Part shown: piece by piece, positions 1,754 through 57,658 of the stretch
Layout: each line of letters begins with the position of its first letter
Numbering within the stretch: position 1 is the stretch's first letter
Assembly (NCBI GenBank): GCA_046331705.1
Contig: JAXLQJ010000010.1
Coordinates: forward strand, 1-64,000
Direction of reading: 5' to 3'
Origin: a bacterium
GTDB taxonomy: Bacteria; JADJOY01
DNA: 64,000 nucleotides
Notes under the pieces: generated by a model
Told to the model about the DNA's origin: nothing
The model's database searches: none
What the model saw: only the letters and a program-made list of their open reading frames with translations
Translations under genes and position numbers: made by a program

Positions 1754-2746
1754 TCACACCATCCCGCGCGAGCGGAACCAGTCGATCGCCTTCTCGACCG
1801 CCGTGCGGAGCGGCGTCACCTCCAAGCCGAGCACCTTGCGGGCCTTCGCGTTGTCGAAATAGACGTGTTGATTCGCGTACTCGAAGGCCTTGAGGGTGCC
1901 GAGGGGCTTGCGGCCCGTGACCTTCGACACGCGCTCCGAGGTGGAGACCATCGCGCGGATGGCGGCGGTCGGGATCTTCACGTCGGGAATCCAGATGCCG
2001 GCGACCTCGGCCACCAGCTTCGCGAAATCGCGATAGGTGACGTTGTGGCCGGCGAGGATGTAACGCTCGCCGATGTGCCCCTTGGCGCCCGCCAGCAGGT
2101 GGCCGCGCGCCACGTCCTCCACGTCGACCGCGTTGAAGCCGCCTTCCATGTAGCCCGGCACCACGCGCTTGACGGTGTTGATGATGATCTCGCCGGTGGG
2201 CGTGGGCCCGATGTCGCCGGCGCCGAACGGAAAGGCCGGGTTCACGATCACCGCGGGCAGCCCGCGGCGGATGAAATCGAGCACCTCGAGCTCGGAGATG
2301 TACTTGCTCAGGATGTAGTCGTTGGCGCGATCCCAGAGGTTGAAGAGCGTGGTCTCGTCGGCGGGCTCTTGGCCGGCGCGCTTGCCGACCGCGGCGATCG
2401 AGCTGGTGTGCACCACCTTCTCGATGCTCTTCGACGCGAGCGCGGCGCCCAGCAGCGCGCGCGTCCCCTCGACGTTCACCTCGTACATCAACGCGGGACG
2501 CTTGAGCCAGAGCTGGTAGATCGCGGCGAGATGGTAGAGCTCGCGGCAACCCTTGAGCGCCTTCTTCACGACCTCGGAGTCGCGCAGATCGCCCTCGACG
2601 CGCTCCACGTCCAGCGCGTCGATGTTGGTGGTCTTGGCGCCGGGCTCGACCAGCGCACGCACGTCGTGGCCCTCGTCGAGGAGCAGCCGAACCACGTGCG
2701 AGCCGATGAACCCCGTGCCACCGGTCACCAAGACCTTCATCTTCAT
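1754..2746 (-). CDS. NAD-dependent epimerase/dehydratase (dihydroflavonol-reductase/HpnA-like)
   Basis: Start reset to MKMKVLVTGGTGFIG (GGAGG RBS). YxxxK (YILSK) and PTPTG motifs. Confidence 0.88.
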   Translation of the reverse strand: MKMKVLVTGGTGFIGSHVVRLLLDEGHDVRALVEPGAKTTNIDALDVERVEGDLRDSEVVKKALKGCRELYHLAAIYQLWLKRPALMYEVNVEGTRALLGAALASKSIEKVVHTSSIAAVGKRAGQEPADETTLFNLWDRANDYILSKYISELEVLDFIRRGLPAVIVNPAFPFGAGDIGPTPTGEIIINTVKRVVPGYMEGGFNAVDVEDVARGHLLAGAKGHIGERYILAGHNVTYRDFAKLVAEVAGIWIPDVKIPTAAIRAMVSTSERVSKVTGRKPLGTLKAFEYANQHVYFDNAKARKVLGLEVTPLRTAVEKAIDWFRSRGMV

Positions 2747-3342
2747 GCGCCTCCGTTCGGTGCTTCGTCGCGAAAAAGCCCGCGCGCGGCAATGTAGCGC
2801 GCCACTCCTTCGGTCACGAGCCCCGCGAGCGGCTGGTGTGCCCGGAGGCGCGCGCGGATGTCGACGCTGCGCACGTCGTCGAGGAAGGGCTCGAGGCCGA
2901 GCTCGCGATTGGCCGCGTCGAACCCGCGCCGCGGGATCCAGAGCGGCGGCGCGAGGCGCTCCACCTCGTGGAAATCCTTCCAATGGGTCCGCTCTTCGTA
3001 GAGATCGGCGCCCAGCACCACGCGGAAGCCGCGCCCCGGGAATCGCGCGTGCAGGAAGCGCAAGGTGTCGATGGTGCGACCGGTGCGGCCGGGCACGTCT
3101 TGCTCGTAGGTCACCACGCGCGCCCGGCGCTCGGGATCGTCGAGATCGGCGAGCATGCGCTCGCACATCGCCACGCGATCGGCGAACGGCGCCAGCGCCT
3201 TGCCGAACGGGTGCGCGTAGGCGGGCATGAGCCAGAGCTCGCCGGCGTGCACCCGCAGCACGTGCCGGCACACACCGAGGTGGCCGAGGTGTGGCGGGTT
3301 GAAGCTGCCGCCGAAGAGCGCGACGGGCGGCGGCGCCTCCAT
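2743..3342 (-). CDS. nadD: Nicotinate-nucleotide adenylyltransferase
   Basis: FGGSFNPPHLGH, TIDTL, GAD, W-K motifs. Adjacent to pncB, 4-bp overlap with downstream gene. Confidence 0.88.
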   Translation of the reverse strand: MEAPPPVALFGGSFNPPHLGHLGVCRHVLRVHAGELWLMPAYAHPFGKALAPFADRVAMCERMLADLDDPERRARVVTYEQDVPGRTGRTIDTLRFLHARFPGRGFRVVLGADLYEERTHWKDFHEVERLAPPLWIPRRGFDAANRELGLEPFLDDVRSVDIRARLRAHQPLAGLVTEGVARYIAARGLFRDEAPNGGA

Positions 3343-4641
3343 TCAGCCCTCGATCTCGAAGCGGACGGGAAAGCGTTCGGGGACGGCGAGGCGGCGGACC
3401 TCGGGCGGCAGCGCACGCAGCTGCTCGGCGGCGCGCGCGCGGGCCCTCGCCAGCGGCTCGAGCGGTCGCATCCGCACGCCCCCCTCGATCACCGCTTCGA
3501 GCAGCGCGCGTTCACCCGATTCCGCGGACGCATCACGCGCCACGACGCGATCGCCGAGGGCCTGCCCGGACGCGTCGAAGCGACGCATCACCTGCTTCGC
3601 GCCGGCGACGTTCACCTTGCCCGGGCTGCGCTTGGCCGGGCGGCGCACGCCGTCCGGCCCGTCGATCTCGACCAGCTTCATGACCGCGCCCAGCGCGGGC
3701 GCGTCGGCGGGGGTCGCGAGCTGCTTGCCGACGCCGAATCGGTCGATGGGTGCGTCCGCGCACACCAGCTCGTCGATGCGGTACTCGTCGAGCTCTCCGC
3801 TCGCGGTGACGATCGTCGCGGCGAGGCCGTGCGCATCGAGGTGGGCGCGCACCCGCCGGCTGATCGTCGCGAGATCCCCCGAGTCGATCCGCACGCCGCG
3901 CACCGGGCGCTCGAGCTCCACGAGCGCCGCCAGCGCGCCCTCCACGTCGTAGGTGTCGAGCGGCACGAGATCGGTCTCCGGGAAGAGATCGAGCAGGCGC
4001 GCGAAGGCCTCGGGCTCTCGCTCGTGAGCGAGCACCCACGCGTGCGAGACCGCGCCCACCAGCGGAATGCCGTGGCGGAGCGCCGCCTCGACGTTCGACG
4101 TGGCGGCGGTGCCGGCGAGGTGCGCGGCGCGTGCGATCACCGCCGCGGCGGCGCGTCCGGCGGCGCGCCGGCTCGCGAACTCGATCACGTCGCGCCCGCG
4201 CGCGGCCACCACCAATCGCGACGCCTTGGTGGCGGCGGTCGTGGCGAGCTGGATCGTCGCGAGCGTGAGCGTCTCGAAGAGCGAGATCTCGGTCAGCGAG
4301 GCGGTGATCTGGAGCAGCGGCTCGCCGGAGAAGACGGGCGTCCCCTCGGCGGGCGCGCGAACCGAGCCCGTGAAGCGATAGTCGGCGAGCCACGCGAAGA
4401 AGGAGTCGGGCGCGTCGCGCAGCGCGGGCAACGCGCGCAGGTGCGCGACTTCGTCGGCCGAGAAGCGCAATCCCGCGATCCCGTCCGCCGCTTCGTCCAC
4501 GCCTGCGACGACCAGGTAGTTGCGATTGCGCGGCAGCGCGCGAACGAAGACTTCCGCCGTGGCGATCTCGTCACGCCGCGCGGCGTGGTGCGCCGCCGCC
4601 ATCACCAGGCCCTGCAGATCGATGTCGAGCGCGCCGGTCAT
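3343..4641 (-). CDS. pncB: Nicotinate phosphoribosyltransferase (divergent)
   Basis: TSNV, DTYD, GVRIDSGDL, ASGELDEY, FGVG motifs. Confidence 0.85.
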   Translation of the reverse strand: MTGALDIDLQGLVMAAAHHAARRDEIATAEVFVRALPRNRNYLVVAGVDEAADGIAGLRFSADEVAHLRALPALRDAPDSFFAWLADYRFTGSVRAPAEGTPVFSGEPLLQITASLTEISLFETLTLATIQLATTAATKASRLVVAARGRDVIEFASRRAAGRAAAAVIARAAHLAGTAATSNVEAALRHGIPLVGAVSHAWVLAHEREPEAFARLLDLFPETDLVPLDTYDVEGALAALVELERPVRGVRIDSGDLATISRRVRAHLDAHGLAATIVTASGELDEYRIDELVCADAPIDRFGVGKQLATPADAPALGAVMKLVEIDGPDGVRRPAKRSPGKVNVAGAKQVMRRFDASGQALGDRVVARDASAESGERALLEAVIEGGVRMRPLEPLARARARAAEQLRALPPEVRRLAVPERFPVRFEIEG

Positions 4642-4648
4642 TCCGCGA

Positions 4649-5077
4649 TCAGCCGGGACCCGGCTCCGCGAGGAAGCCCTTGCCAGGCACGTGATTCACC
4701 TCGAGGCGGATGCCGTCGGGGTCCTCGAAGAGCACCGAGTAGTAGCCCGGCATCCACGCGCCTTCCTCCGGCGGGTGCACGATGGTGGCGCCGATCGACT
4801 CCAGGTGCTGATGGAGCGCGTCGACGTCGGCCCGTTCGCGAGCGCGGAAGCAGAGGTGGTGAAGGCCCACGCGAAACTGGGCGAATCGCTCGCGGGCGTG
4901 CGCGTCGTCGCAGCGCACCACGCCGACCGCCGTGCGGCCGCCGACGTAGTAGAGGTAACCGTCGCCGTCGATCATCGGCTTGAGGCCGAGGAACGAGAGC
5001 AAGCTCGTGTAGAACGGGCGAGCCTTGTCGAAATCGCTCACCGTCAGGAACACGTGGGCGATGCCATTGATCTCCAC
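4649..5077 (-). CDS. VOC/glyoxalase family protein
   Basis: GTG start after GAGGAGG. GIAHVFLTVSD, GLHHLCFRA, YYSVLFEDPDGIRLE. Confidence 0.88.
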   Translation of the reverse strand: MEINGIAHVFLTVSDFDKARPFYTSLLSFLGLKPMIDGDGYLYYVGGRTAVGVVRCDDAHARERFAQFRVGLHHLCFRARERADVDALHQHLESIGATIVHPPEEGAWMPGYYSVLFEDPDGIRLEVNHVPGKGFLAEPGPG

Positions 5078-5241
5078 CGCGCCCTCCTCCGCGTCGCTGG
5101 GCCGAGACGCGGCGCCAGTCTCGCCGAACGTCCGGACCGCGAGCAACGCGTCAGCGCACCCCGCGTTCCGGCGCGGCAAGCGACGGAACGTCGCGCCGCC
5201 GGGTGCGCATCCGCCGCGGCGCCACCGCGACGGGCGCCGCG

Positions 5242-6525
5242 CTACCGATTCGCGAGCAACGCGTCCACGGACGGCTGCACCTGCGCCAGCCGGAACGAGC
5301 CGGCGCCCGAGTACGTGGCGCGGATGCGCCCGGCGCGATCGATGAGCACGGCGCTCGGAACACCGTTGAACCCGTAGGAGCGCTGGGTGCCCGGCACGGT
5401 CACGACGGTGGGGACCGTCACCCCGACCCGGCGCAGGTAGTCGTCGACCGTGACGGTGCGCTTGTCGATGCTCACCGCGATCACGTTGACACCCTTGCCG
5501 CGCAGCGAGTCGTGGAGCTTCTGCACCTCGGGCATCTCCTTCCGGCACCAACCGCACCAGGTCGCCCAGAACACCACCAGGTTCACGCGGCCCGAGAGCG
5601 CGTCGAAGCTGCGCGGGGCGCCCGCGTAGGTCTCGCGGAACTCGAAACGCGGTGCCTTGCGCGCGTTCGGCGCGGCGACGAGCTTCGCCGGCGGTCCCGT
5701 CGCCGGGCCGAGCGATTCGCCGTCATCGGGAGACGGCGCGTCGTCCGGATCCTCCGAGAACGGCTTGGAGACCTCGGCGCGCGCGAGCTCGGCCGGATCC
5801 GGCGGCAACGCGCGAGCGACCAGCGCGCTCAGCAGCGCGCGGCCCGCGCCGGTGAGCGAGTCGGGAGTGCCGCCGAAACCCCACAGCACCCGGTTGTCGA
5901 ATCGGGTGATGGCGAACGCGGCGGCTGCGTCGTCGCTGACGCGGCCGACCGCCTCGACGCCCACCGCGCGTCGCGCGTCGACGCCGACGATGGTGCGCAT
6001 CGGCACGTCGTTGGCGTAGATCGCGATCCGCCCATCCGGCTCTTTCGGCAACGACGGCGGCAGATCGAGCTGCGAGGCGGCCGCGGCCGACAGGGCCACC
6101 GCGCGCCCGCTCGCGGGCGTGAACCGCGCGCCCTCGGTGCCGGCGCCCTGCGGCGCCACCAGCTCGGTCGCGGCACCCATGAGAAAGAGCGGATGCGCGG
6201 ACACCGCCTTCCACGGTCCCGGGTGGCCCTTCCAGTAGAGCGCGGTGTCCGAGGTCGCGAACACCAGCCCGCACGCCAGTAGGTCGGGGCGATTGGCGAC
6301 CTGATCCAGGTCGAGGGCGTCGATCACCCGCGTGGCGATGCGGTGCTCGCGCAGGGTCTTCTCCCATTGCGCCGCGAGCGCGGGAGTGGCCGAGACCACG
6401 CACACGGTGCGCTCGGCGGGCTGTGCGGACGCCGCCGTGGCGCCGGTGAACGCGAGCCAGGTGGCGGCAACGGCGCACCACCGGGCGACGCTGCGTGCTC
6501 GCGCTGCGACGTCGAACGGGCGCAT
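5242..6525 (-). CDS. Exported protein with C-terminal TlpA-type thioredoxin domain
   Basis: Signal-peptide-like N-terminus. FWATWCGWCRKEMP and GVPSAVLID motifs. Confidence 0.8.
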   Translation of the reverse strand: MRPFDVAARARSVARWCAVAATWLAFTGATAASAQPAERTVCVVSATPALAAQWEKTLREHRIATRVIDALDLDQVANRPDLLACGLVFATSDTALYWKGHPGPWKAVSAHPLFLMGAATELVAPQGAGTEGARFTPASGRAVALSAAAASQLDLPPSLPKEPDGRIAIYANDVPMRTIVGVDARRAVGVEAVGRVSDDAAAAFAITRFDNRVLWGFGGTPDSLTGAGRALLSALVARALPPDPAELARAEVSKPFSEDPDDAPSPDDGESLGPATGPPAKLVAAPNARKAPRFEFRETYAGAPRSFDALSGRVNLVVFWATWCGWCRKEMPEVQKLHDSLRGKGVNVIAVSIDKRTVTVDDYLRRVGVTVPTVVTVPGTQRSYGFNGVPSAVLIDRAGRIRATYSGAGSFRLAQVQPSVDALLANR

Positions 6526-6619
6526 GGGGGCAGACTCTCACAGCTCCGGTGCTTTGGAAATCGCCGCCGTTCCACGCCGCCGTTCCAGGGTCGCGCCGGC
6601 GCGCACACGGCGCGCTCGG

Positions 6620-7675
6620 CTAGTTGGAATCGCGAACGAACGCGGCGAACGCGCGGCCGTTGCCTCGCAGCGATCCGTCGGGATTCTGCAGCCCGCGCCG
6701 ATCGTTGCCATCCATGCTCGACCACACGACGAACGGCATGCCCAGGCGTCGCGCGGCGGCGAGCATCGCGGTGACCTCGTCGTCGTCGCTGGTGGGCTGG
6801 CCGAGCTCGTTCGAGACGACCGGCAAGCCGGTGGCGCGGCTCAGATGGCGCGCCGCTTCCTCGAACGCGGCGGCGTCGGGGATGTCCCAGTGGAGGTTCA
6901 CGAAATCCGCCTTCGCCCCCGCATAACCGGCGAGCAGCGCCCGGCCGCGCTCCACCGCCCGCGCGGCGCGCTCGCGACCACCCGGCCCGCGCAGCTCGCG
7001 GCGCTCGGCTTCGCTCGTCGCCCGCTCCACGAACGCGTCCGCGCGGTCGACCTGCCCTTGCGCGCGCAGTTGCTCGGCCACCAGCAGCGCCACCACCTTG
7101 CTCGGCAGCCCGCCGTTGGTGCAGCGCACGCCGCGCGCGTGCGCCGCGGCGCACGCAGCGCGCAGCAGCTCGGCGTATTGCTCGGGCGTTCCGGCGAAGC
7201 GGCTCGGCGAGCTCTCCTCGTCCTCGATCGACACCAGCGCCGGCTTGTACTTGTCGAGGACGCTGCCGAGACGCGCTTCGTAGCGCGCCAGATCGAGCGG
7301 CGGCTTCGAGGGCGCGCCCGAGGGACCGCGATCGCCGCTGTTGCGAACGGTGAGCACGATCGCGAAGCCCGCCTCCTGGAACGCCTCCGTGTCCTGGTGA
7401 AAGCCACCCCAATCGGAGAGCGTCAGGTCCCATGGCCGTACGTACGCCACGCCCAGCCTCTTCGCGACCTCCACGCGGCTGCGCATCGTGAGCCCGCCGC
7501 CTCCCACCATCACGCCGAAGGGATTGGCGCTGGCGGCGCCGGCGGAACGCACGCCGGCGGCACCCGCCAGGAGCGCGATCGCGATCACGCCGACCGAGCG
7601 CGCGCGAGCGCGCCGCGCGGGCGGCGGATGCCGTGAGCGGCGTGGTTGGCGCGCAGGGGTGGGTCGAGAGGTCAT
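6620..7675 (-). CDS. Exported TIM-barrel protein, possibly clan GH-A glycoside hydrolase
   Basis: Hydrophobic signal segment. IEDEE and VVSNELG resemble acid/base and nucleophile positions, plus FVNLHW. Start uncertain. Confidence 0.55.
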   Translation of the reverse strand: MTSRPTPARQPRRSRHPPPARRARARSVGVIAIALLAGAAGVRSAGAASANPFGVMVGGGGLTMRSRVEVAKRLGVAYVRPWDLTLSDWGGFHQDTEAFQEAGFAIVLTVRNSGDRGPSGAPSKPPLDLARYEARLGSVLDKYKPALVSIEDEESSPSRFAGTPEQYAELLRAACAAAHARGVRCTNGGLPSKVVALLVAEQLRAQGQVDRADAFVERATSEAERRELRGPGGRERAARAVERGRALLAGYAGAKADFVNLHWDIPDAAAFEEAARHLSRATGLPVVSNELGQPTSDDDEVTAMLAAARRLGMPFVVWSSMDGNDRRGLQNPDGSLRGNGRAFAAFVRDSN

Positions 7676-44799: not shown

Positions 44800-46008
44800 A
44801 TGACATCGAACCGCAGCGTCTGGTTGGCAGCCCTCGTTGCCGTGTCGCTCGCCGTGGCGTGTGGAGGAGGCGGGGGCGGCGGTGGTGGTGACGGAGGGGG
44901 CGGCGGCGGCGACGATCTGGGCGAAGCGAACGCGTTTCGCCTGGTGGAGCTCGGGACCTTCCCGCTCGGCTCGACGGTGCAGGCGGGCGGACGATCGTTC
45001 GCCGCCACCGCGCCGATCTCCGCGAAGATCGCGAGCGACACCGTGTCGTTCGCGCTGCTCACCGATCTCACCGACAGCGGTGCCGCGGATCGCCTCGGCA
45101 CGATCGCCGACGTGGTGAGCCCGTCGGGCGAGCTGCTCACGCCCGGGAGCAATCTCGATCAGTTCCAGGACGGCCCGCTCAAGCCGAGCTTCGACTACGG
45201 CGCCAACGGGCTGCTGATCCCGAAGTCGCCGAGCGGCCTGCCGCAAGCGGGCACCTACACCTTCCGCGTGATCCGCGACGGCAGCAGCAATCGCTCGGTC
45301 CCCGTCGCGGTGGCCGTGCGGCGCGGCAAGATCACCGGGCGCCGCATCCCGTGCAACGTGTTCGTGCACGATCAATCGGGCCTCAAGCCCGAGGACCTGG
45401 GCGGCGTCATGGATCGGATCAACCAGATCTACGCGCAAGCCGGGCTCACGCTCGACCCCATCGAGTTCTTCACCGGCGGCGATGCCGGCAACGCCGTGAT
45501 CCGAAACCCCGGCAGTCCCGGCTCGAACCTGCCTTCGTTGCTCTCGATCCCCGCACCCCAGGAAGACGCGCTCACGTTCTGGTTGCTCCAGGACGTGACC
45601 GATTCGAGCGTCGACCAAGATCTCACCCTCCTCGGTCTGGCGCTCGGCATCCCCGGCTCGTACGGCTGGCCGCGGTCCAGCGACAACGGCGTGCTCGTCT
45701 CGGTGGCCGGTCACACCGGGCCGCTGGGTCTGGTGGTGGACGCCGAGCTGCTCGCGGTCACGATGGCGCACGAGGGCGGCCACTGGTTGGGCCTGAATCA
45801 CACCAGCGAGTTCGACGGCAGCGCGCACGACCCCATCGGCGACACGCCGGAGTGCTTCATCACCGCCGACGCCAACGGCAACACGCGTCTGGATCCCGAC
45901 GAGTGCCCGGACGCGCCGAACCTGATGTTCTGGACCGGTACGTCGAACGACGATCTCAGTCGCGATCAGGACATCGTCCTGCAACGGAACCCGATCGCCG
46001 TGCCGTGA
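44800..46008 (+). CDS. Lipoprotein metzincin metallopeptidase (M43/pappalysin-like)
   Basis: Lipobox LAVAC, poly-Gly tether, HEGGHWLGLNH, DTP, Met-turn NLMFW. Confidence 0.82.
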   Translation: MTSNRSVWLAALVAVSLAVACGGGGGGGGGDGGGGGGDDLGEANAFRLVELGTFPLGSTVQAGGRSFAATAPISAKIASDTVSFALLTDLTDSGAADRLGTIADVVSPSGELLTPGSNLDQFQDGPLKPSFDYGANGLLIPKSPSGLPQAGTYTFRVIRDGSSNRSVPVAVAVRRGKITGRRIPCNVFVHDQSGLKPEDLGGVMDRINQIYAQAGLTLDPIEFFTGGDAGNAVIRNPGSPGSNLPSLLSIPAPQEDALTFWLLQDVTDSSVDQDLTLLGLALGIPGSYGWPRSSDNGVLVSVAGHTGPLGLVVDAELLAVTMAHEGGHWLGLNHTSEFDGSAHDPIGDTPECFITADANGNTRLDPDECPDAPNLMFWTGTSNDDLSRDQDIVLQRNPIAVP

Positions 46009-46038
46009 CGTTCCACGGCGCGCCGGAGCTTACGACCG

Positions 46039-46602
46039 ATGAAACGCTTGCAAACCTTGGCGTTGGTGATCATGGGGACGACGCTCGTGTTCTGTTCGAC
46101 CACGCATGGCGGTGAAGACACCGTGTCGCGGGTGCGCGCGCGGCTGGGGCAGGGCTACGAGCAAGCGCCGACCTCCGGCGAGATCGAAGCGCTCGGGCCG
46201 GACGTCGGCGTTGCGCTGCTCGAGATCTACCGCGACCCCGCGAGCCCCATGCTCCACAAGATGCGGGCCCTCGACTTGCTCGGGAGCTATCCCAGCGAGG
46301 ACTTGAAGACGCTGCTCGACGCCGAGTCCGCGCGCACCGATCTCCCGCCCGCGCTCGCCCGCCGCGTCCTGGCGGTCGCGATCCGCGCCTACGGCGATCG
46401 TGAGCCAGCCGTCGCCGAACGCGTCTGGCAAGCCAACGCGGCGAGCGCCGACGCCACCGTCCGCTACGACGCCGCCCAGTCGCTCATCAAGCTTCGACCC
46501 AGCGCCGCGCTGATCGCCACCGCGCGGCAGCGCGCCACGAGCGAGATCGACGCCACCGTGCGCGCCGAGCTCGACAAGGCGCTCGCCGCCGTGCCCCGCT
46601 GA
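46039..46602 (+). CDS. Small exported HEAT-like repeat protein
   Basis: Signal-like N-terminus, RALDLLG, DATVRYDAAQSL, DATVRAEL. Confidence 0.65.
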   Translation: MKRLQTLALVIMGTTLVFCSTTHGGEDTVSRVRARLGQGYEQAPTSGEIEALGPDVGVALLEIYRDPASPMLHKMRALDLLGSYPSEDLKTLLDAESARTDLPPALARRVLAVAIRAYGDREPAVAERVWQANAASADATVRYDAAQSLIKLRPSAALIATARQRATSEIDATVRAELDKALAAVPR

Positions 46603-46646
46603 GCGCGGTCGCTCCGCCGCTTCAAGCTCGCCTGGAGGCGCGAACC

Positions 46647-46781
46647 CGAACCTACCTCCACCCGCCCACCGGCGCTCGCCGCCGCCACCAGCTGCACGAA
46701 TCCGTGCGCCAGTGCGCCGTCTCCATCGCCGTGGTCTGCGCGCGCCTCTCGAAACGCGCCACCTGCCACACCCTCCGCCAC
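46647..46781 (+). pseudogene. intI: Integron-integrase-like (IntI) internal fragment
   Basis: Manual translation [45 protein letters not shown] matches the IntI-specific RRHH.HES segment and the following CHTLRH motif. No start codon. Confidence 0.75.
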
Positions 46782-46821
46782 TATACCGAGTACCGGGTTG
46801 TGCCGAGCTCGGCATGACCCC
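46782..46821. mobile_element. 40-bp insertion scar containing a 26-bp palindrome, splitting the recombinase RH-SFATH motif
   Basis: GGGTTGTGCCGAG/CTCGGCATGACCC (46795-46820, two mismatches). CCAC repeated at 46778-46781 and 46821-46824. Confidence 0.65.
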
Positions 46822-46950
46822 CACAGCTTCGCGACACACCTGCTCGAAAGCGGCACCGACCTGCGCACCATTCAGACCGTGCTCGGGCACTCGTCGCTCG
46901 GCACCACGGTGATCTACCTGCACGTCGCGGCCGGGGCGCTCGAGGTCCGC
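46822..46950 (+). pseudogene. Tyrosine recombinase C-terminal fragment
   Basis: [35 protein letters not shown] (box II, catalytic Tyr). End coordinate approximate. Confidence 0.85.
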
Positions 46951-46990
46951 GCTCGCGGCGCGAGCGAACCTCTTCGGCGATCAGCGCCGC

Positions 46991-48084
46991 GTGCTGCGCG
47001 ATCTCGCCGCGTGCCGCACGGCGGCGCTCGGTGGACATCGATTCGAATGCGAGCGCTGCGGCCACGTCGATCTCTCCTACAACTCCTGCCGCAACCGTCA
47101 CTGCCCGCGCTGCCAGCGCACCGCGCAGGCCACGTGGTTCGCCGACCGCGAGCGCGAGCTGCTCCCGGTTCCGTACTTTCACGTGGTCTTCACGATTCCC
47201 GACGAGCTGGCGCCCGTAGCGCTCGCCAACCCGCGGCACGTGTACGGGCTGCTCTTTCACGCCGCGGCGGACACGCTCACCACCATCGGCCGCGATCCCA
47301 AGCGTCTCGGCGCCGACATCGGCTTCCTCGCCGTGCTCCACACCTGGGGGCAGACGCTCCGGCACCACCCGCACGTTCACTGCGTCGTGCCCGGCGGTGG
47401 ACTGGCTCCGATCACCAGCGCTGGATCGCCAGCCGCAAACGCTTCTTCCTGCCGGTCCGAGTCCTGAGCCGCGCCTTTCGAACCCGATTCCTGCGCGGGC
47501 TGGCCCAGCTTCGCGATCGTGGTGCGCTTCGGTTCGGCGGCGCGATCACACCGCTGGCCGCCGCCGATTCCTGGAGCGCGCTCCTCGACGCGATGCGCGC
47601 GAAGGAATGGGTGGTGTACGCCAAGCCCCCCTTCGGCGGGCCGCGTCAGGTGCTGCGCTACCTCGCCCGCTACACCCACCGCATCGCCATCGGTAACGAC
47701 CGCATCCTCGCCCTCGACAACGACCACGTCGCCTTCCGGTACAAGGACTCGGCCCATGCGCGACGCCCGCGCACGATGCGGCTTCCGGCGGTGACCTTTC
47801 TCCGACAGTTCTTGTTGCACGCGCTGCCGTCCGGCTTCATGCGCATCCAGCATTACGGCTTCCTGGCGAACCGAGCGCGGAAGACGCTCCTACCGCTGGC
47901 GCAGCGGCTCGCGGCACGGGACACGACGCCGACCCCGGAGTCCCCGAGTACGCGTCCGGTCGAACCCGTGGCGCAGCGCGCTCCCCGTCGCTGTCCGGCC
48001 TGCGGCGAGAGCGCGTGGCTGGTCGTCGCCGTCGTTGCGCCCGAGCCCGCGAGGGCCTCATCGCTCCCTCTCGACACCTCCTGA
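46991..48084 (+). pseudogene. IS91-family HUH (Y2) transposase, 5'-truncated and frameshifted near 47400-47420
   Basis: First frame: [24 protein letters not shown] Zn domain and HTWGQ..HPHVH. Second frame: [34 protein letters not shown]. Confidence 0.9.
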
Positions 48085-48349
48085 GCACCGAGCCGCCATC
48101 CGTGATCACGATCCTGCCCCGTGCGCCTGACGTCGTCTCTCCCGGTCCAGCGACCGGATCGGGAACGCTCCGCCCAGCCGGCTCCGCAGCCGCCCTCGGC
48201 AAGCGATCTCTTCGCCGGATCCAACACACGAACCGTGCGACTCCAGCCGTCCGGGCATCCACCATCCCGCCCGACGCCCTTGACCGCGGGACCGTCCTCC
48301 TCAACAATCCCCATAGGGAAAGACGCCTAAGGCCTCCCACCGCGGTCTA

Positions 48350-48449
48350 GTCCAACGGGATCCTATCCAGACCGCTCGGGGCCGGCTCTCACCCCGGACG
48401 ACGCACAACCTCGGCCCGAGCACCCTGGATAGAATCCTTTTCGTTGGCG
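48350..48449 (+). repeat. attC-like imperfect hairpin at the end of the IS91-like unit
   Basis: GTCCAAC (RYYYAAC) ... GGATCCTATCCAG / CTGGATAGAATCC ... GTTGGCG, with inner arms GCTCGGG/CCCGAGC. Confidence 0.6.
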
Positions 48450-48510
48450 CGCAACCATGTTTAACCAAGCCACTGCAGGGCGCCGCATGCGCTCCACGCT
48501 ATAGTTGACG

Positions 48511-49345
48511 ATGATTCTGTCGCACCTTGAGGTTGAGGCTCTCTCGCCTGACGCCCTGGAGCGAGCCTTCGATGATCGGGTCGCTCGCGTCCTGAGTCGC
48601 TCGCTCGCAGCGGTCTTTGTCGCCGCCGACGTTGGAACCCAAACCTGACCTTCGCTGGAAGCGCGACCTCGTCGTACTCTAACCGCGTGTTCTTGCTGAC
48701 GGCGGAGCATCTGCTCTCAGAATTCGCGCACTGGGGTCGGCTCGGCTTTGCGACACCATACAATCAAACCGTGAGGCTCTATCAACGCGACTCTCTCCAC
48801 ATTTGGGCATTGCTTCGTGGACCAGACCCCGCACGCGGCCCTGACGTCGCAATGGTAGAGATTCCCGGAACCTGACGCGAGTGCCGTCAAACTCGAGAGC
48901 GTTGTGTACTCGCTCGACCTGCGCGAAGGCGAGGCCCCCGCCCAGGCGCCGAGACCTGATGCTGACCATTGGATGGTGGTTTGCCGCGCAGCCGAACGAC
49001 ACGAATTCGCCTCGACCACCGGCAGAATCACCAGCAGCGTTCTGCGGTGACCGTGTCCCGCTGTATTCGAAGCACGACGGATTGACTACGTCCGCATTGA
49101 ATTCAATCGTTCGACCCAGACGCACCTTCCACGCGACTTCAAGGGCGTGAGCGGTGGCGCACTTTGGAGAATGCAAATCCGCAAGGATCCGGAGAGTTGC
49201 AATCGTGGTGGGACGAATCGCGACGCTTGAAGGGGTTGCATTCTATCAGAGCGATATCGTTAACGATTCAGATTTCATTATCTGTCACGGCAGACATACA
49301 CTATACAATCGGCTTCTACCGTTTGTATCAGCTAGTTCCTTCTAA
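48511..49345 (+). pseudogene. Fragmented trypsin-like serine protease (cassette-like, AT-richer)
   Basis: FLLTAEH (~48690-48710), GPDVAMVEI (~48840), DFKGVSGGALW (~49135-49167) and LEGVAFYQ lie in several frames separated by stops. Confidence 0.6.
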
Positions 49346-49359
49346 CGACACCCGGAAGC

Positions 49360-49740
49360 ATGCGCGTCAAAGTTCGGCTCACGAGTCTCACAGGATGGCA
49401 ACGCATCTATGTGGTTCTGTCCGCGGTTTGGCTCATTTTTGTGTCTGGTCAAGTCGTCAGCGAGCTGACTACTTCATCCTTTGCGCGTGATTTCCATGAT
49501 GGATGCGATTCTCAGAGCCATCTCTACTTCCGTTGGTTCGATTCAAAGACACATCGTCGGCTCAGCCTTTGGCGGGATGGCGAATTTTCAGTCAATTGCG
49601 CGGTCCTGCAACAGCGTGCCGATCAGATGACCAGCGAGGCCCGCGCCGGGACGATCGAGCCCTACATGAAACTTCGGGGTGATGTGCTTATCCTAGCCTT
49701 GATCGTGCCGGCTATGGTTCTGCTGCTGGTTATTGCCTGA
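49360..49740 (+). CDS. Hypothetical two-TM membrane protein (AT-richer, possibly truncated)
   Basis: GWQRIYVVLSAVWLIFV and a C-terminal hydrophobic helix ending abruptly. Confidence 0.55.
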   Translation: MRVKVRLTSLTGWQRIYVVLSAVWLIFVSGQVVSELTTSSFARDFHDGCDSQSHLYFRWFDSKTHRRLSLWRDGEFSVNCAVLQQRADQMTSEARAGTIEPYMKLRGDVLILALIVPAMVLLLVIA

Positions 49741-49835
49741 ATTCCATCTTCAAATGGATCATAATCGGATTTCGGCAGTCCAAGGGTAAATAGCTCATTG
49801 TCAGAAGGTGCAACCGGAGCAGAGGCGCTCCAACT

Positions 49836-50778
49836 CCCTATAAGGCCCCCGTCCGTCAAGTGTGAACCTCTCCTGTGCGACGTGTTTCTCGTCGTTGATC
49901 CCATCCTCGAGTCGTGGCCTTGCGCTTGACGGACTCTGACTTCGTTTCCGGTACGGCGCGGGCGCTCACGACGGTGGCGCTGCACCAAACGCCTATCGAG
50001 GCTCAGCCGCCTTGCGGCGGTGCCGCGCAGAGAGGACGCGCCGACCTAGAAAACCATTTCGTGTCCTTTCCCGTCCCATTCAAAGCGTCAGGCTCGAAGT
50101 CCGTTGGTTGCGGGCTCGGAGAGGAGCAGAGCCAGCGAAAGACCATCGTCTCGAGTACCTACGGAAGAGCGGGGCAAGCGCGGGTGGCCAGTCAAAACGA
50201 ACGGTTGTCCGGGCACGTGGCTCATGACGTCCGAGTCCTGCTCGAGGCAGACGATTCGTGGAGCGTCGTTGCTGGAGCTCGACCCTTGTGGATTCCAGTT
50301 CGACATCGGGCTCACCCGCGCTTCCCCAAGATCGTTACGTTTTCATGAAACGCTCCCGGTTGAAGGGTTCACCGCGGGTGAGCATGGGGTAGCTCGCGCG
50401 GGCGAGACGATGAGCGAGGATCGACATCGCCTTGCCCTTGCCGTGCTTCCGCGCGAGACGCTCCCGCAGTCGTTGCCCCTCGGGGTTGCCGTGCAGGAAG
50501 AGCGCTGCGGCTTCCGAGTAGGCCCACTTGAGGTGAACGTTCCCGATCTTGGCGCCGCCGGTGCCGTGGATCTTGCCCGCGGACTCACGGCTGCACTTCA
50601 CCAGCCGGCAGTACGACGCGAAATCCTGCACGCGCGGGAAGCGCTGGATCGTGTGGACCTCGTAGAGGATCGTGAGCGCGAGAATCTTGCCGACACCCGG
50701 GATCGAGCGCAGCAGATGGAAAGCGTTTGGGTCGTGCTCCTTCGCTTGCCGCACCAGGTAGAGCTCGAGGTCGGTGAT
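49836..50778 (-). mobile_element. IS110-family remnant: transposase C-terminus plus long 3' non-coding end
   Basis: Transposase fragment followed by ~490 nt without a credible ORF, ending in CTTGACGGACGGGGGCCTTATAGGG, where composition shifts to AT-richer. Ends approximate. Confidence 0.75.
50335..50778 (-). pseudogene. IS110-family transposase C-terminal (Tnp) domain, RuvC domain missing
   Basis: LLRSIPGVGKILALTILYE, RF....DFASYCRL, ESAGK, GNVHLKWAYSEAA, ILAHRLAR. Confidence 0.88.
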
Positions 50779-50803
50779 GCGCTCGCCGAGGATCCGAGGG
50801 CGA

Positions 50804-50898
50804 ATCCGACTCGAGGTTGCAGCAGACGGCACTCGGGGTGCGCGCGGCTGGGGTTCGTGGTAATTCGTGGCCGCTGCTGAGCGCTTTGCAGGTCGCGA
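50804..50898 (+). repeat. Degenerate attC-like site
   Basis: ATCCGAC-tcgaggtt-GCAGCAGACGGC ... GCCGCTGCTGA-gcgctttgcag-GTCGCGA, an attC-like L''/L' arrangement. Confidence 0.5.
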
Positions 50899-50941
50899 CG
50901 ATGCCTCACGATCGCCCTCGATCTCCAAGAGAACGAGCACC

Positions 50942-51283
50942 ATGGCCAAGTACCTGATCTCCTTCCCGAGCGCGGCGATGGTGGTGCCCACCAGCGAGTG
51001 GGAGGCGGTGGGCCGCGACGCGCACGCCGTGGTCGACGAGGCGAAGGCCGCTGGCGTCTACGTCTTCGGCGGCGGCATCGACGAAGGCGTTCCGCCCGTG
51101 CTCGTCTCGGCCGACGGCACGGTCGTCGAGGGTGGCTACCCGTGGGCGCCTCGGCTCGACGGCGGATTCACCGTGCTCGAGCTACCTTCGCGCGAGCAGG
51201 CCGTGGCGTGGGCCGCGCGCATCGCGAAGGCCTGCCGCTGCGCCCAGGAGTTGCGCGTCTTTCAGTTCGACCCACAGTCCTGA
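50942..51283 (+). CDS. YciI-family (DGPF-like) protein
   Basis: MAKYLISF, EAKAAGVYVFGGG, GGFTVLELPSREQAVAWAARIAKACRCAQELRVF. Confidence 0.85.
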   Translation: MAKYLISFPSAAMVVPTSEWEAVGRDAHAVVDEAKAAGVYVFGGGIDEGVPPVLVSADGTVVEGGYPWAPRLDGGFTVLELPSREQAVAWAARIAKACRCAQELRVFQFDPQS

Positions 51284-51423
51284 TGGCGGTGCGTGCTCAG
51301 GCATTGCACTGGCTTCCGCCATCACGGCGAGTGTCGTGCTGGCGCTCGGGCCGATCGAGGTCGTGAGCTTCTGTTTGGAGACGATCGAGGCCGGCGTCTG
51401 CGGTGGCGCGGGCGGCGCGTGCG

Positions 51424-52419
51424 TTACGCGGGCGGGATCGCGTCGACGAAGCAGTCCTCCGGCTTGGGCGCCCTGGCGCGGTCGACGAGGCCGAGCTCGA
51501 CGAGCTGATCGACCACGGTCTTCCAGCGGTCGAGTGTCATGCGCCCCAGTCCGGCAGAGCCTTGCGGCCCGAGCACCAGCGGTTCCTGTGCTTTCGCTGA
51601 ATCGCGGAAGGTATCCAGATCCATCGTGCTGTTGAGCGCGTGCATGCGTTCATTGGTCGGGCCGGGATCGGCGAGGTAGCGGGTCCAGCCGTCACGCGCG
51701 GCTGCGACGAAGGCACGTGCTTCTTTCGGATTCTCGCGCCAGCGCTTGCCGCTGGTGATCACCACGGTCATGTACGGGTTGAGACCGACGTCGGACAGCA
51801 ACCAGACCTGCGGATCGGCGCCGCGGCGGCGAGCCAGGATGGGTTCGGAGGTGGCGAAGGCCTGCATGGCGAAGCTCTTCTCGGTGAGGAAGCGCTCCAT
51901 CGCGCCGGCCATGGGTACGATCGAGACCTTGCCGCCGCCGTAGCGCCGCTCGAGGTACTTGGTGAAGACGCTGCCGGGCTCGACGGCGAGGCTCGCGGGA
52001 TGGTTGAAGAGCTCCGCCAGGCTCGTGGCGCCGATCTCCTTGCGCGCCATGATCGCCCGCGGCGAGGTCTGGTAGACGGCGAAGAGACCCACGATGTCGA
52101 GGCCCGCCGCCCGTCCCAGCGCGATTTCCGTGGCTTCCGCGACGCTGTACTCGAGGCGTCCCAGCGCCACCTCCTGGACCGTGGGCACGCCGGGTCCGCC
52201 GGGGCGAATCGCCACGTCGAGGCCGTGCGCTGCGTAGAGCTTCTCGATCTCGGCGGTGTAGAAGCCGCCGAACTCGGGCTCCGGCACCCAGTTGAGGCCG
52301 AGGGTGATGCGACCGCGGGCCGCGTCCGCGGCACGCGCGCTCGGCGCCGCGGTTACCGCGAGTGCGGCCGACAGCGATGCGATGAGCGCGAGGATGCGTG
52401 ACGATCGCAAGGTGTGCAT
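51424..52419 (-). CDS. ABC transporter substrate-binding protein, NMT1/THI5-like
   Basis: Signal peptide, LNWVPEPEFGGFY, GLDVAIRPGGP, GLNPY. Confidence 0.88.
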   Translation of the reverse strand: MHTLRSSRILALIASLSAALAVTAAPSARAADAARGRITLGLNWVPEPEFGGFYTAEIEKLYAAHGLDVAIRPGGPGVPTVQEVALGRLEYSVAEATEIALGRAAGLDIVGLFAVYQTSPRAIMARKEIGATSLAELFNHPASLAVEPGSVFTKYLERRYGGGKVSIVPMAGAMERFLTEKSFAMQAFATSEPILARRRGADPQVWLLSDVGLNPYMTVVITSGKRWRENPKEARAFVAAARDGWTRYLADPGPTNERMHALNSTMDLDTFRDSAKAQEPLVLGPQGSAGLGRMTLDRWKTVVDQLVELGLVDRARAPKPEDCFVDAIPPA

Positions 52420-56986: not shown

Positions 56987-57658
56987 TCACCTCAGGATCG
57001 CGTAGCTGTCCGCGTAGATGAGCACGGTCGAGATCCACAGCCCCCAGATCGGGAAGACGAACCAGAGTCCGTTCGACGCGCCGACGAACGAGGCGATCAT
57101 GGCCGGCGAATGGCCGACGTGGTTCCGGTTGTTGAAGAACTGGAAGAAGTAGACGACCGTGCCGTAGAACATCTGCCAGTACATCGCGATACCGATGATG
57201 CCGAGAACGCGCGCCGGCACCAGCTCGAAAGTCATGCCGATCACGGTGAGCGCGGCGGGCAGCACGGTGGACCAGGCGTTGCCCACGTCGATGTTCCAAC
57301 CGAAGGCGCGCCGGTCGGCATAACCGCGATCGAAGAGCGCATAGCTCGACCAGATCCCCGTCCAGCGCCGGAAGCTCAGCAGCTCGCGGAACGGGATTCG
57401 CGCCAGCATGACCTCGTTGACGCGGGCGGTCTCGCGGCCTTTGTACGGCTCGCGCGTCTCCTCCCATTCGCGCCGGATCTGGTCCGCGCACTTGTGGAGC
57501 GCGAACTCCCAGAAGTTCACCAGCAGGTTGATGACCAGGAAGAACGCCAGCGCCGCCTGGTGAACGTTCACGCCGCCGTGAACGAGCGCGTGCAAGCCGA
57601 TGTGGGCGGCGGATCCGCCCACGATCACGAACAGGATGAAAGACCAAGCTGGAACCAT
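56987..57658 (-). CDS. EXPERA/emopamil-binding-like membrane protein
   Basis: W..Y...D..Y and NGLWFVFP motifs, five TMs. Confidence 0.6.
   Translation of the reverse strand: MVPAWSFILFVIVGGSAAHIGLHALVHGGVNVHQAALAFFLVINLLVNFWEFALHKCADQIRREWEETREPYKGRETARVNEVMLARIPFRELLSFRRWTGIWSSYALFDRGYADRRAFGWNIDVGNAWSTVLPAALTVIGMTFELVPARVLGIIGIAMYWQMFYGTVVYFFQFFNNRNHVGHSPAMIASFVGASNGLWFVFPIWGLWISTVLIYADSYAILR

Follow-up and report, generated by a model that had tools for sequence, protein, structure and literature searches.

Structure of the junction

The window, i.e., the whole stretch of 64,000 nucleotides (nt) of the bacterial contig JAXLQJ010000010.1 that was analyzed, contains a site where remnants of two tyrosine recombinase genes are joined through a short palindromic insert (46641–46951). 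This insert is what remains of a RIT (recombinase in trio) element, a mobile unit that encodes three tyrosine recombinases in the genes ritA, ritB, and ritC, which lie next to one another and overlap; RIT elements were reportedly described by Van Houdt in 2009 and 2012 and by Ricker in 2013. All parts at the junction are pseudogenes: nothing there is functional now, and the feature is inert for the genome.

The left-hand gene remnant (46641–46781, plus strand) comprises 47 codons in frame 2, which is the frame of position 46560, and it corresponds to positions 220–266 of the NCBIfam integron-integrase model TIGR02249 (E = 7e-8). It ends with ...ATCHTLRH, the last two codons being CGCCAC at 46776–46781, and a weak similarity possibly reaches back to 46617. 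The right-hand remnant (46825–46951, plus strand; 42–45 codons; Pfam Phage_integrase, E = 1.7e-10) starts with SFATH... one frame over, in frame 0, and corresponds to positions 267–307 of the same integron-integrase model. Because the one piece stops at profile position 266 and the other begins at 267, the two join in register at the Arg-His...His motif (box II) that characterizes tyrosine recombinases. The junction between an IntI-type segment and HSFATHLLE in another frame, which the initial annotation had described, was thus confirmed by direct reading of the sequence. The CGCCAC is separated from the SFATH reading by 43 nt (46782–46824), and CCAC brackets the insert on both sides (46778–46781 and 46821–46824). 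The 40-bp insert of that annotation therefore stands as an insert but not in its length, which is 37–43 nt depending on the boundaries chosen.

Within the insert lies the palindrome GGGTTGTGCCGAG/CTCGGCATGACCC (46795–46820), whose 13-nt arms are complementary at 11 of 13 positions with no spacer between them. As a bare palindrome or hairpin it is unexceptional: the window contains 13 palindromes of equal quality, as compared with a mean of 6.6 in 10 simulations, and its folding energy of −8.9 kcal/mol (z = −1.65) was equaled in 13 of 200 shuffled sequences. The non-randomness resides in its sequence, to which the terminal palindrome of RIT elements has no better match in the window, and in the motif layout described below. 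The 26-mer occurs as a single copy in the window, where 0 matches are expected. A repetitive extragenic palindromic (REP)-like family or another genome-wide repeat was considered and rejected: within the 64 kb searched, only one copy of the 26-mer was found at up to 3 mismatches, the arm pattern gave 11 matches against 13.15 expected, and the 13 comparable palindromes share no sequence relationship.

Different origins of the two gene remnants

In the NCBIfam profile search, the left-hand remnant matched integron-integrase models solely. Its best relative, P0001, shares 72% identity with it over 46 residues and is a full integron-integrase-type protein, with a score of 431 bits on TIGR02249 (cutoff 265). 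A phmmer search of 1.84 billion representatives yielded 256 relatives at E ≤ 0.001, all of which align from query residue 13; TIGR02249 was the top family for all 13 relatives that were checked, 10 of them reaching the cutoff and the 3 below it being partial or fused proteins. The remnant itself scores 32 bits, because only profile positions 220–266 survive. The gene lacks its 5′ two thirds and its 3′ end; the extra domain specific to IntI, which lies upstream of the surviving 47 codons, is gone as well. The remnant resembles integron integrases in that it matches only their models and that most of the relatives checked pass the curated cutoff, and it differs from them in that only 47 codons are left. 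No attI site or cassette array is evident beside it, where no search with attC models was made, and the neighboring open reading frames (ORFs) are a lipoprotein-like gene and other ordinary chromosomal genes. The data show an intI-type relic of 141 nt; nothing shows that an integron was ever present here.

The right-hand remnant is 93–98% identical to proteins P0002–P0006. The full-length members of this group (288–292 aa) score 206–224 bits on TIGR02249, which is under the cutoff. In the Aromatoleum plasmid 2 (locus L001) and in an intact relative of the right-hand element on a metagenome-assembled contig (L002), which served as the reference for the DNA comparison, such an integrase gene sits directly upstream of an IS91-family transposase gene. 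Both genes are intact in L002, the stop of the integrase (292 aa) overlapping the start of the transposase, and the pair in L001 is annotated as a tyrosine recombinase and an ISAzo26-family IS91 transposase. The DNA of 46821–46965 is 96.6% identical to positions 843–989 of L002, and this alignment starts exactly at CCAC.

The contrast between the two sides was also clear when they were compared jointly. Although 111 database proteins span both halves, none matches both well. Among the 80 proteins found via the left half, the median identities are 57% for the left and 52% for the right half, whereas among the 31 found via the right half they are 38% and 74% (up to 95%), respectively. At the DNA level, the window and L002 are identical at 135 of 141 positions to the right of the junction, as compared with 78 of 141 to the left, where the alignment is gapped. 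The junction is therefore a chimera of two integrase lineages. The initial annotation had proposed that the halves come from different subfamilies, to be examined by searching each separately and by scoring against an IntI profile; in these analyses the best matches indeed fell in different recombinase subfamilies, namely integron integrases only for the left half and the below-cutoff IS91 companion integrases of 288–292 aa for the right half.

End structure of RIT elements on plasmids

RIT elements are widespread: a tblastn search with RitA of Aromatoleum matched 454 plasmid records. Twelve RIT copies (L005–L016) were compared, and the ends were analyzed in 11 of them, L006 being a duplicate of L005. 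The inverted repeats were obtained by aligning the flanks of these plasmid loci. In one subgroup of RIT elements, each inverted repeat is built from a 10-nt motif (TTATGCCGAG type) that is present twice in direct orientation at a distance of 17 nt; this spacing was found in L008, L011, L012, and L015. In addition, a 20-nt palindrome composed of two inverted copies of the motif lies just outside one of the inverted repeats in 6 of the 11 loci. The end motifs and the terminal palindrome are carried by RIT trios on plasmids of Sphingobium, Rhizobium, Paraburkholderia, and Bradyrhizobium. The RIT ends given in the initial annotation, TTATGCCG...CGGCATAA, are real, as these trios have exactly such motifs.

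One locus permitted a comparison with an empty site. In L012, the Sphingobium RIT interrupts a ParB gene, and the uninterrupted ParB gene is found in L017. This comparison revealed that the palindrome belongs to the inserted DNA and forms the end of the element, that the target ends with ...GCCA, and that a duplication of 6–7 nt, (A)CAGCCA, is present on both sides.

These ends can be set beside those in the literature. According to the portion of PMC3414803 that was consulted, RIT elements are about 3.5 kb long and carry a 28-9-bp inverted repeat with an overlapping palindrome; the same portion mentions insertions in a transposase gene and in radC, as well as combinations of truncated RIT elements on the Aromatoleum plasmid analyzed here. 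Imperfect palindromes of 47–51 bp at RIT ends appear in an excerpt of PMC5737581. The part of PMC10214605 that was seen gives inverted repeats of 34 bp, and its Table 1 lists target specificity and movement of RIT elements as not tested.

Two further observations concern the plasmid copies. In L008, L011, L012, and L015, an extra inverted motif is located approximately 55 nt (52–78 nt) further in at both ends (in L012 at 2676 and 6167), and such copies raise the number of motifs to up to eight per element. The DNA outside the Bradyrhizobium RIT (L008, 2780–2800 and 6220–6240) forms an inverted repeat (CATTGAG...ACAG), as if the RIT were located inside the ends of another element.

The insert as a RIT remnant

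The same layout is found in the window. The RIT remnant, which may be called a mini-RIT, occupies 37 nt (46781–46817, plus strand) and contains three RIT end motifs: the outer motif CTATACCGAG (46781–46790, plus strand), the inner motif TTGTGCCGAG (46798–46807, plus strand), which follows after a 7-nt spacer, and the inverted terminal motif CTCGGCATGA (46808–46817), which forms the palindrome with the inner motif. The outer and inner motifs are 17 nt apart, as in the plasmid RIT elements. With a half-site matrix, these motifs ranked 17th, 9th, and 1st, respectively, of 127,982. The remnant is flanked on the left by CCGCCA (46775–46780), which we regard as a 6-nt flanking repeat by analogy with the L012–L017 comparison, the target again ending with ...GCCA, and on the right by CCCCCA (46818–46823), which on direct reading agrees with the left copy at 5 of 6 bases. 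After CCCCCA comes C AGC..., where the recombinase reading resumes.

The significance of the layout was evaluated with matrices that represent one motif subgroup of RIT elements on Proteobacteria plasmids. A 20-nt palindrome matrix was constructed from the six plasmid palindromes and scanned over 63,981 positions of the window. The stretch 46798–46817 ranked first with 25.75 bits, the runner-up having 8.73 bits, and this score was reached in none of 100 simulated windows (best simulated score, 19.5). The direct-direct-inverted arrangement of the motifs occurred once in the window and in none of 300 simulated windows. One complete RIT end is thus present (46781–46807), the opposite inverted repeat is missing, and three of the six terminal motif copies survive. 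The proposal of the initial annotation that the palindrome represents abutted RIT ends whose interior was lost agrees with these results, since the RIT motif layout is present and the whole interior is missing.

As compared with known RIT elements, e.g., those of Aromatoleum aromaticum EbN1 plasmid 2 and of the Sphingobium sp. YC-XJ3 plasmid NZ_CP117472.1, the insert shares the type of the 10-nt motif, the 17-nt spacing, the back-to-back terminal palindrome, the end position relative to ...GCCA and the Arg-His codons, and a putative short flanking repeat. It differs in that ritA, ritB, and ritC are absent, that only 37 nt are left, and that its flanks come from two genes. Accordingly, tblastn searches of the window with RitA, RitB, and RitC of L005, L011, and L012 detected only the two known box II fragments.

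Other searches with the junction were also performed. In a BLAST search of plasmids with the 91-nt junction, no record covered at least 80% of it, and the best E-value was 0.06. Two Streptomyces matches to the junction (H1 and H4) were discarded, being located in unrelated genes. When the read-through peptides were compared with plasmids by tblastn, the left junction had no match and the right junction matched in the SFATH motif only. The best match of the 428-aa read-through ORF in the protein collection showed 74% identity over 52% of the query, and no copy of the relic was found there. An Rfam search over 46000–51500 returned nothing at E ≤ 1. Elsewhere in the window, three single half-site matches (ranks 7, 2, and 3) occur within 130 nt at 57196–57323; with irregular spacing, no RIT layout, and coding-looking DNA around them, they were judged to be due to chance.

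RIT ends at the Arg-His codons of other recombinase genes

The position of the insert, directly within the CGC-CAC codons of box II, raises the matter of where RIT ends lie in other genes. We examined the region after the Arg-His codons in 151 integron-integrase-type representatives that had been found with the left half: 85 continue normally, 5 end near RH, and 61 are disrupted downstream, a share that is not a rate because it partly reflects that broken genes form their own clusters. These 61 disruptions (among P0122–P0271) are mostly frame changes or contig ends within 0–30 codons. Six of the 61 proteins (P0149, P0159, P0225, P0238, P0261, and P0269) break exactly after RH, and their tails, which are related to one another but not recombinase-like, follow the pattern Y-A-G-S-R-T-M-P-S or H-A-D-S-R-I-M-P-T; the peptide at the same place in the window is Y-T-E-Y-R-V-V-P-S. 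When the tails of the six proteins were compared with the RIT loci, they matched the inverted repeats, each match being short and individually weak: P0149 and P0238 matched both repeats of L008, P0269 the right repeat of L011, and P0261 the left repeat of L012. A tblastn search of plasmids with the RIT-tailed P0238 and P0269 matched the IntI part only. Four further candidates for motif insertions (P0191, P0224, P0254, and P0169) were rejected as plain frame changes a few codons further on.

Direct cases were found on plasmids. In Aromatoleum plasmid 2, a RIT trio lies inside other recombinase genes: in L005, ...RLHDLRH is followed by a RIT end, and after the trio a different type of recombinase resumes with TTAMHLLQAG. 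In L006, the RIT copy is 99.97% identical to that of L005, and it is flanked on each side by the 5′ half of a recombinase gene; these halves are inverted relative to each other, and both end with ...HVIRH. In L007, the right flank of the Rhizobium RIT reads ...TLRH. On the other side of the element, protein P0096, which was found via the right half of the window, reads ...LLCRARHKSH and then SFATH..., closely similar to ...LCRARHDPH and then SFATH in the window, and the right junction of L012 translates to LCRARHNSH. These peptides represent the terminal palindrome plus the 6-nt repeat in translation, and thus the right end of a RIT lies in at least one further recombinase gene.

RIT ends have hence been found repeatedly in a position immediately following ...GCCA, within the Arg-His codons (CGC-CAC) of box II. 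This result supports what the initial annotation had anticipated on two points: RIT ends abut the Arg-His codons of tyrosine recombinases on the Aromatoleum and Rhizobium plasmids, in 6 of the 151 IntI-type proteins, and in P0096; and arms of the same motif type as those of this palindrome are found as termini of larger elements, the RIT loci, and at equivalent motif positions in other integrase genes.

Concerning the details of these loci, the left and right flanks in L005 (7503–12260) are a ritB-type 5′ half and a ritC-type 3′ half, respectively, and the ritC-type half is preceded by 27 nt that represent a degenerate RIT end. The RIT region of L006 extends over 2268–7172 of its locus on Aromatoleum plasmid 2.

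Origin of the junction

How an intI-type gene and the companion integrase gene of an IS91-family element came to flank one RIT remnant may be explained as follows. RIT copies would have been inserted at the same Arg-His codons in both genes, and recombination between the copies would have joined the left flank of one gene to the right flank of the other. The body of the RIT, i.e., everything between two directly repeated copies of the motif, would have been lost afterwards, and the IS91 element would then have decayed through a 108-nt deletion and a frameshift. The surviving structure is what such a loss would leave: in L012, the palindrome contains a motif in the same orientation as the inner motif of one end, and the two are identical 10-mers in direct orientation. 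The route through two insertions is available because the end of a RIT is present in P0096, a non-IntI recombinase, and because the flanks on the Aromatoleum plasmid are swapped; unlike flanks surround the RIT elements of L005, L006, and L007. We regard this whole history, in which two RIT insertions recombined and left the remnant, as the best explanation, the balance of probability being slightly in its favor. The chimerism, the RIT identity of the insert, and the recurrence of RIT ends at these codons are demonstrated, whereas we infer in what order the events took place and that the body was lost between the repeated motifs. The initial annotation had suggested that recombination between two insertions fused an integron locus to an IS91-like unit; the chimera with the IS91 unit is real, the two insertions are one of two histories that fit, and the integron locus was not borne out.

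Several results weigh against this explanation or some part of it. When the right 6-mer CCCCCA is compared with GCGCCA, which is native to the integrase gene of the insertion sequence (IS) in L002, 2 of 6 positions disagree, as against 1 of 6 in the comparison with the left copy; therefore, a single insertion in the intI-type gene fits better than two on this point, although it leans only weakly that way. The length of the duplication comes from a single empty-site comparison, and the flanks of L011 and L015 showed no clear duplication. RIT elements also sit outside recombinase genes, namely in the ParB gene of L012 and in a strawberry-notch gene of L016. The RIT elements from which the matrix was derived share the type of the motif with the insert and not close sequence identity, and no match to the insert was found in plasmids by BLAST. 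In the 64-kb window there is no intact RIT, no rit gene, no second remnant, and no other recombinase fragment. Finally, the three-motif arrangement was absent from 159,181 nt of RIT-bearing and other loci, and thus such remnants are not a regular by-product.

A history with one insertion is possible, if rather unlikely. In this case, a RIT or its remnant would have been present in the intI-type gene only, and the conserved box II DNA adjoining the insert on the right, CAGCTTCGC...CTGCTCGA, would later have recombined or annealed with the corresponding stretch of the companion integrase gene of the IS91 element, so that the 3′ part of intI was replaced by the IS and the DNA between was deleted. 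The right 6-mer accords with this course: CCCCCA is one change from the CCGCCA of the intI side and two from the native GCGCCA, and the 84 nt that follow it are identical to L002. Moreover, these genes have no DNA identity in common that is longer than the box II stretch, which by itself matched many unrelated recombinases, and losses between short repeats do occur at this locus, the 108-nt deletion being an example. The crossover, however, must then lie within approximately 12 nt of the insert, and a difference of 1–2 nt in a 6-mer is thin evidence.

That the insert is unrelated to RIT elements, being filler DNA or an IS91-type by-product, is very improbable. Conceivable routes are premature rolling-circle termination at a pseudo-site with GTGG, transfer of a micro-segment by the HUH transposase, templated fold-back synthesis, and end joining. 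The right-hand element is indeed a rolling-circle transposon of the IS91 family that is truncated on one side, GTGG bounds the insert on both sides when the other strand is read, and, according to the parts of PMC13181058 and PMC5737581 that were consulted, IS91 ends have subterminal palindromes by a tetranucleotide and termination can be imprecise. Nevertheless, when the insert was aligned with the left and right ends of the intact L002 element and with the right end of the IS in the window, the scores were at chance level (8–9), and blastn-short against L001–L004 gave at most matches to an 11-nt palindromic core. Nor is there a local template: against the 400 nt on each side, the insert scored 10.5 and 9.5, values equaled by 5% and 22% of 312 background windows, respectively, so that the score of the right flank is matched by 22% of random 400-nt windows. 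Such routes do not predict the first-rank match to a matrix derived from unrelated RIT palindromes or the 17-nt spacing of the motifs.

Hardly any credence can be given to independent truncations at the same codon or to an assembly join at a conserved k-mer: the region is a graveyard of elements (the truncated IS91 element, an IS110-family fragment, and a low-GC stretch) and the closest relative, L002, is a metagenome-assembled contig, but the chance that two genes of approximately 900 nt break independently at aligned positions no more than 4 nt apart is estimated at less than 1%, a k-mer join would leave no 37-nt insert with RIT motifs, and the same type of junction recurs in independent records.

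Comparison with known systems and possible meaning

Returning to the RIT remnant, it is like miniature inverted-repeat transposable elements (MITEs) and solo transposon ends in that it is very short, retains the two extreme ends of its parent, and has a putative short flanking repeat; it differs from them in that it is a single copy in the data searched and shows no sign of moving as a unit. The junction also resembles that of complex class 1 integrons, where ISCR1, which is IS91-like and lacks one end, abuts integron DNA. Here, in contrast, it is intI itself that is joined, a third element (the RIT) mediates the junction, resistance genes are absent, and the whole has decayed. A description of targeting of the Arg-His codons by RIT elements, or of a solo remnant, was not found in the literature searched, which excluded Ricker et al. 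2013.

The scar offers testable features: the 10-nt end motif in the 17-nt and back-to-back layout, the terminal palindrome owned by the element, and the ...GCCA target, which in tyrosine recombinase genes falls on the Arg-His codons. The comparisons also provide evidence that RIT copies reshuffle the genes that they interrupt. We tentatively consider a wider possibility, which we hold to be doubtful, that RIT elements are specialized to home into the box II Arg-His codons of integron integrases, IS91 companion integrases, and other RIT elements, so that rivals are knocked out and fusions and inversions are driven, and that the 37-nt remnant is still a substrate in trans. If so, the remnant, keeping both extreme ends, would be a minimal substrate that RIT recombinases could cut, move, or recombine. 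If such homing were general, RIT elements would be a source of dead integron integrases, as in the 6 of 151 representative IntI-type proteins, and would offer a way for integrons, IS91 elements, and other loci with recombinase genes to become fused.

The truncated IS91-family element and the adjoining DNA

The right-hand remnant is the C-terminus of the companion integrase of an ISAzo26-type element of the IS91 family, and the rest of the element follows it. At 46952–46975 is a deletion junction, where approximately 108 nt were lost as judged from the alignment with positions 930–1130 of L002; this deletion removed the stop of the integrase together with roughly 22 codons from the start of the transposase. 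A loss between short direct repeats is suggested by some 19 nt in the window that can be aligned with either side of the gap. The N-terminally truncated transposase pseudogene (IS91 family, Y2 HUH; 46966–48084, plus strand) contains the Zn_Tnp_IS91 (PF14319) and Y2_Tnp (PF04986) domains. A 1-nt deletion after 47405 splits it into two frames, and the two pieces score 221.1 and 180.9 bits on NF033538 (cutoff 125). In the comparison of the transposase region with L002, 1389 of 1471 nt are identical (94.4%), with one single-base gap. The non-coding right end of the IS (48085–48445, plus strand) was delimited by extending this anchor against L002; the last shared base is 48445 (...CCTTTTCGTT), after which the next base is C in L002 and G in the window (48427–48450).

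The copy in the window lacks the first 831 nt of the L002 element, i.e., the left end and 231 integrase codons, and it can neither move nor make protein. It resembles the elements of the ISAzo26 group in the integrase C-terminus, the zinc-binding and Y2 domains, the right end, and the gene order, its DNA being 94–97% identical to the intact copy in L002, and it differs by the loss of the left 831 nt, the internal deletion of 108 nt, and the frameshift.

As for the relatives of this element, the left end of the IS91 type in L002 (1–40) lies approximately 12 nt from the start of the contig, with GAAC beside a small hairpin. The overlap of the integrase stop and the transposase start in L002 (GTGA, 1020–1040) recalls the orf121-tnpA overlap of IS91 as it appears in the consulted part of PMC13181058. 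In addition, a single ORF combines integrase domains with those of an IS91 transposase in the database proteins P0274, P0279, P0289, P0368, and P0109, perhaps through natural fusion or through the read-through of frameshifted pairs.

To the right of the IS (48446–51000), the G+C content is lower (0.595 in 48001–50000) and the ORFs have no Pfam match. A C-terminal fragment of an IS110-family transposase is located at 50335–50991 on the minus strand, and the region as a whole looks like a small graveyard of mobile DNA.

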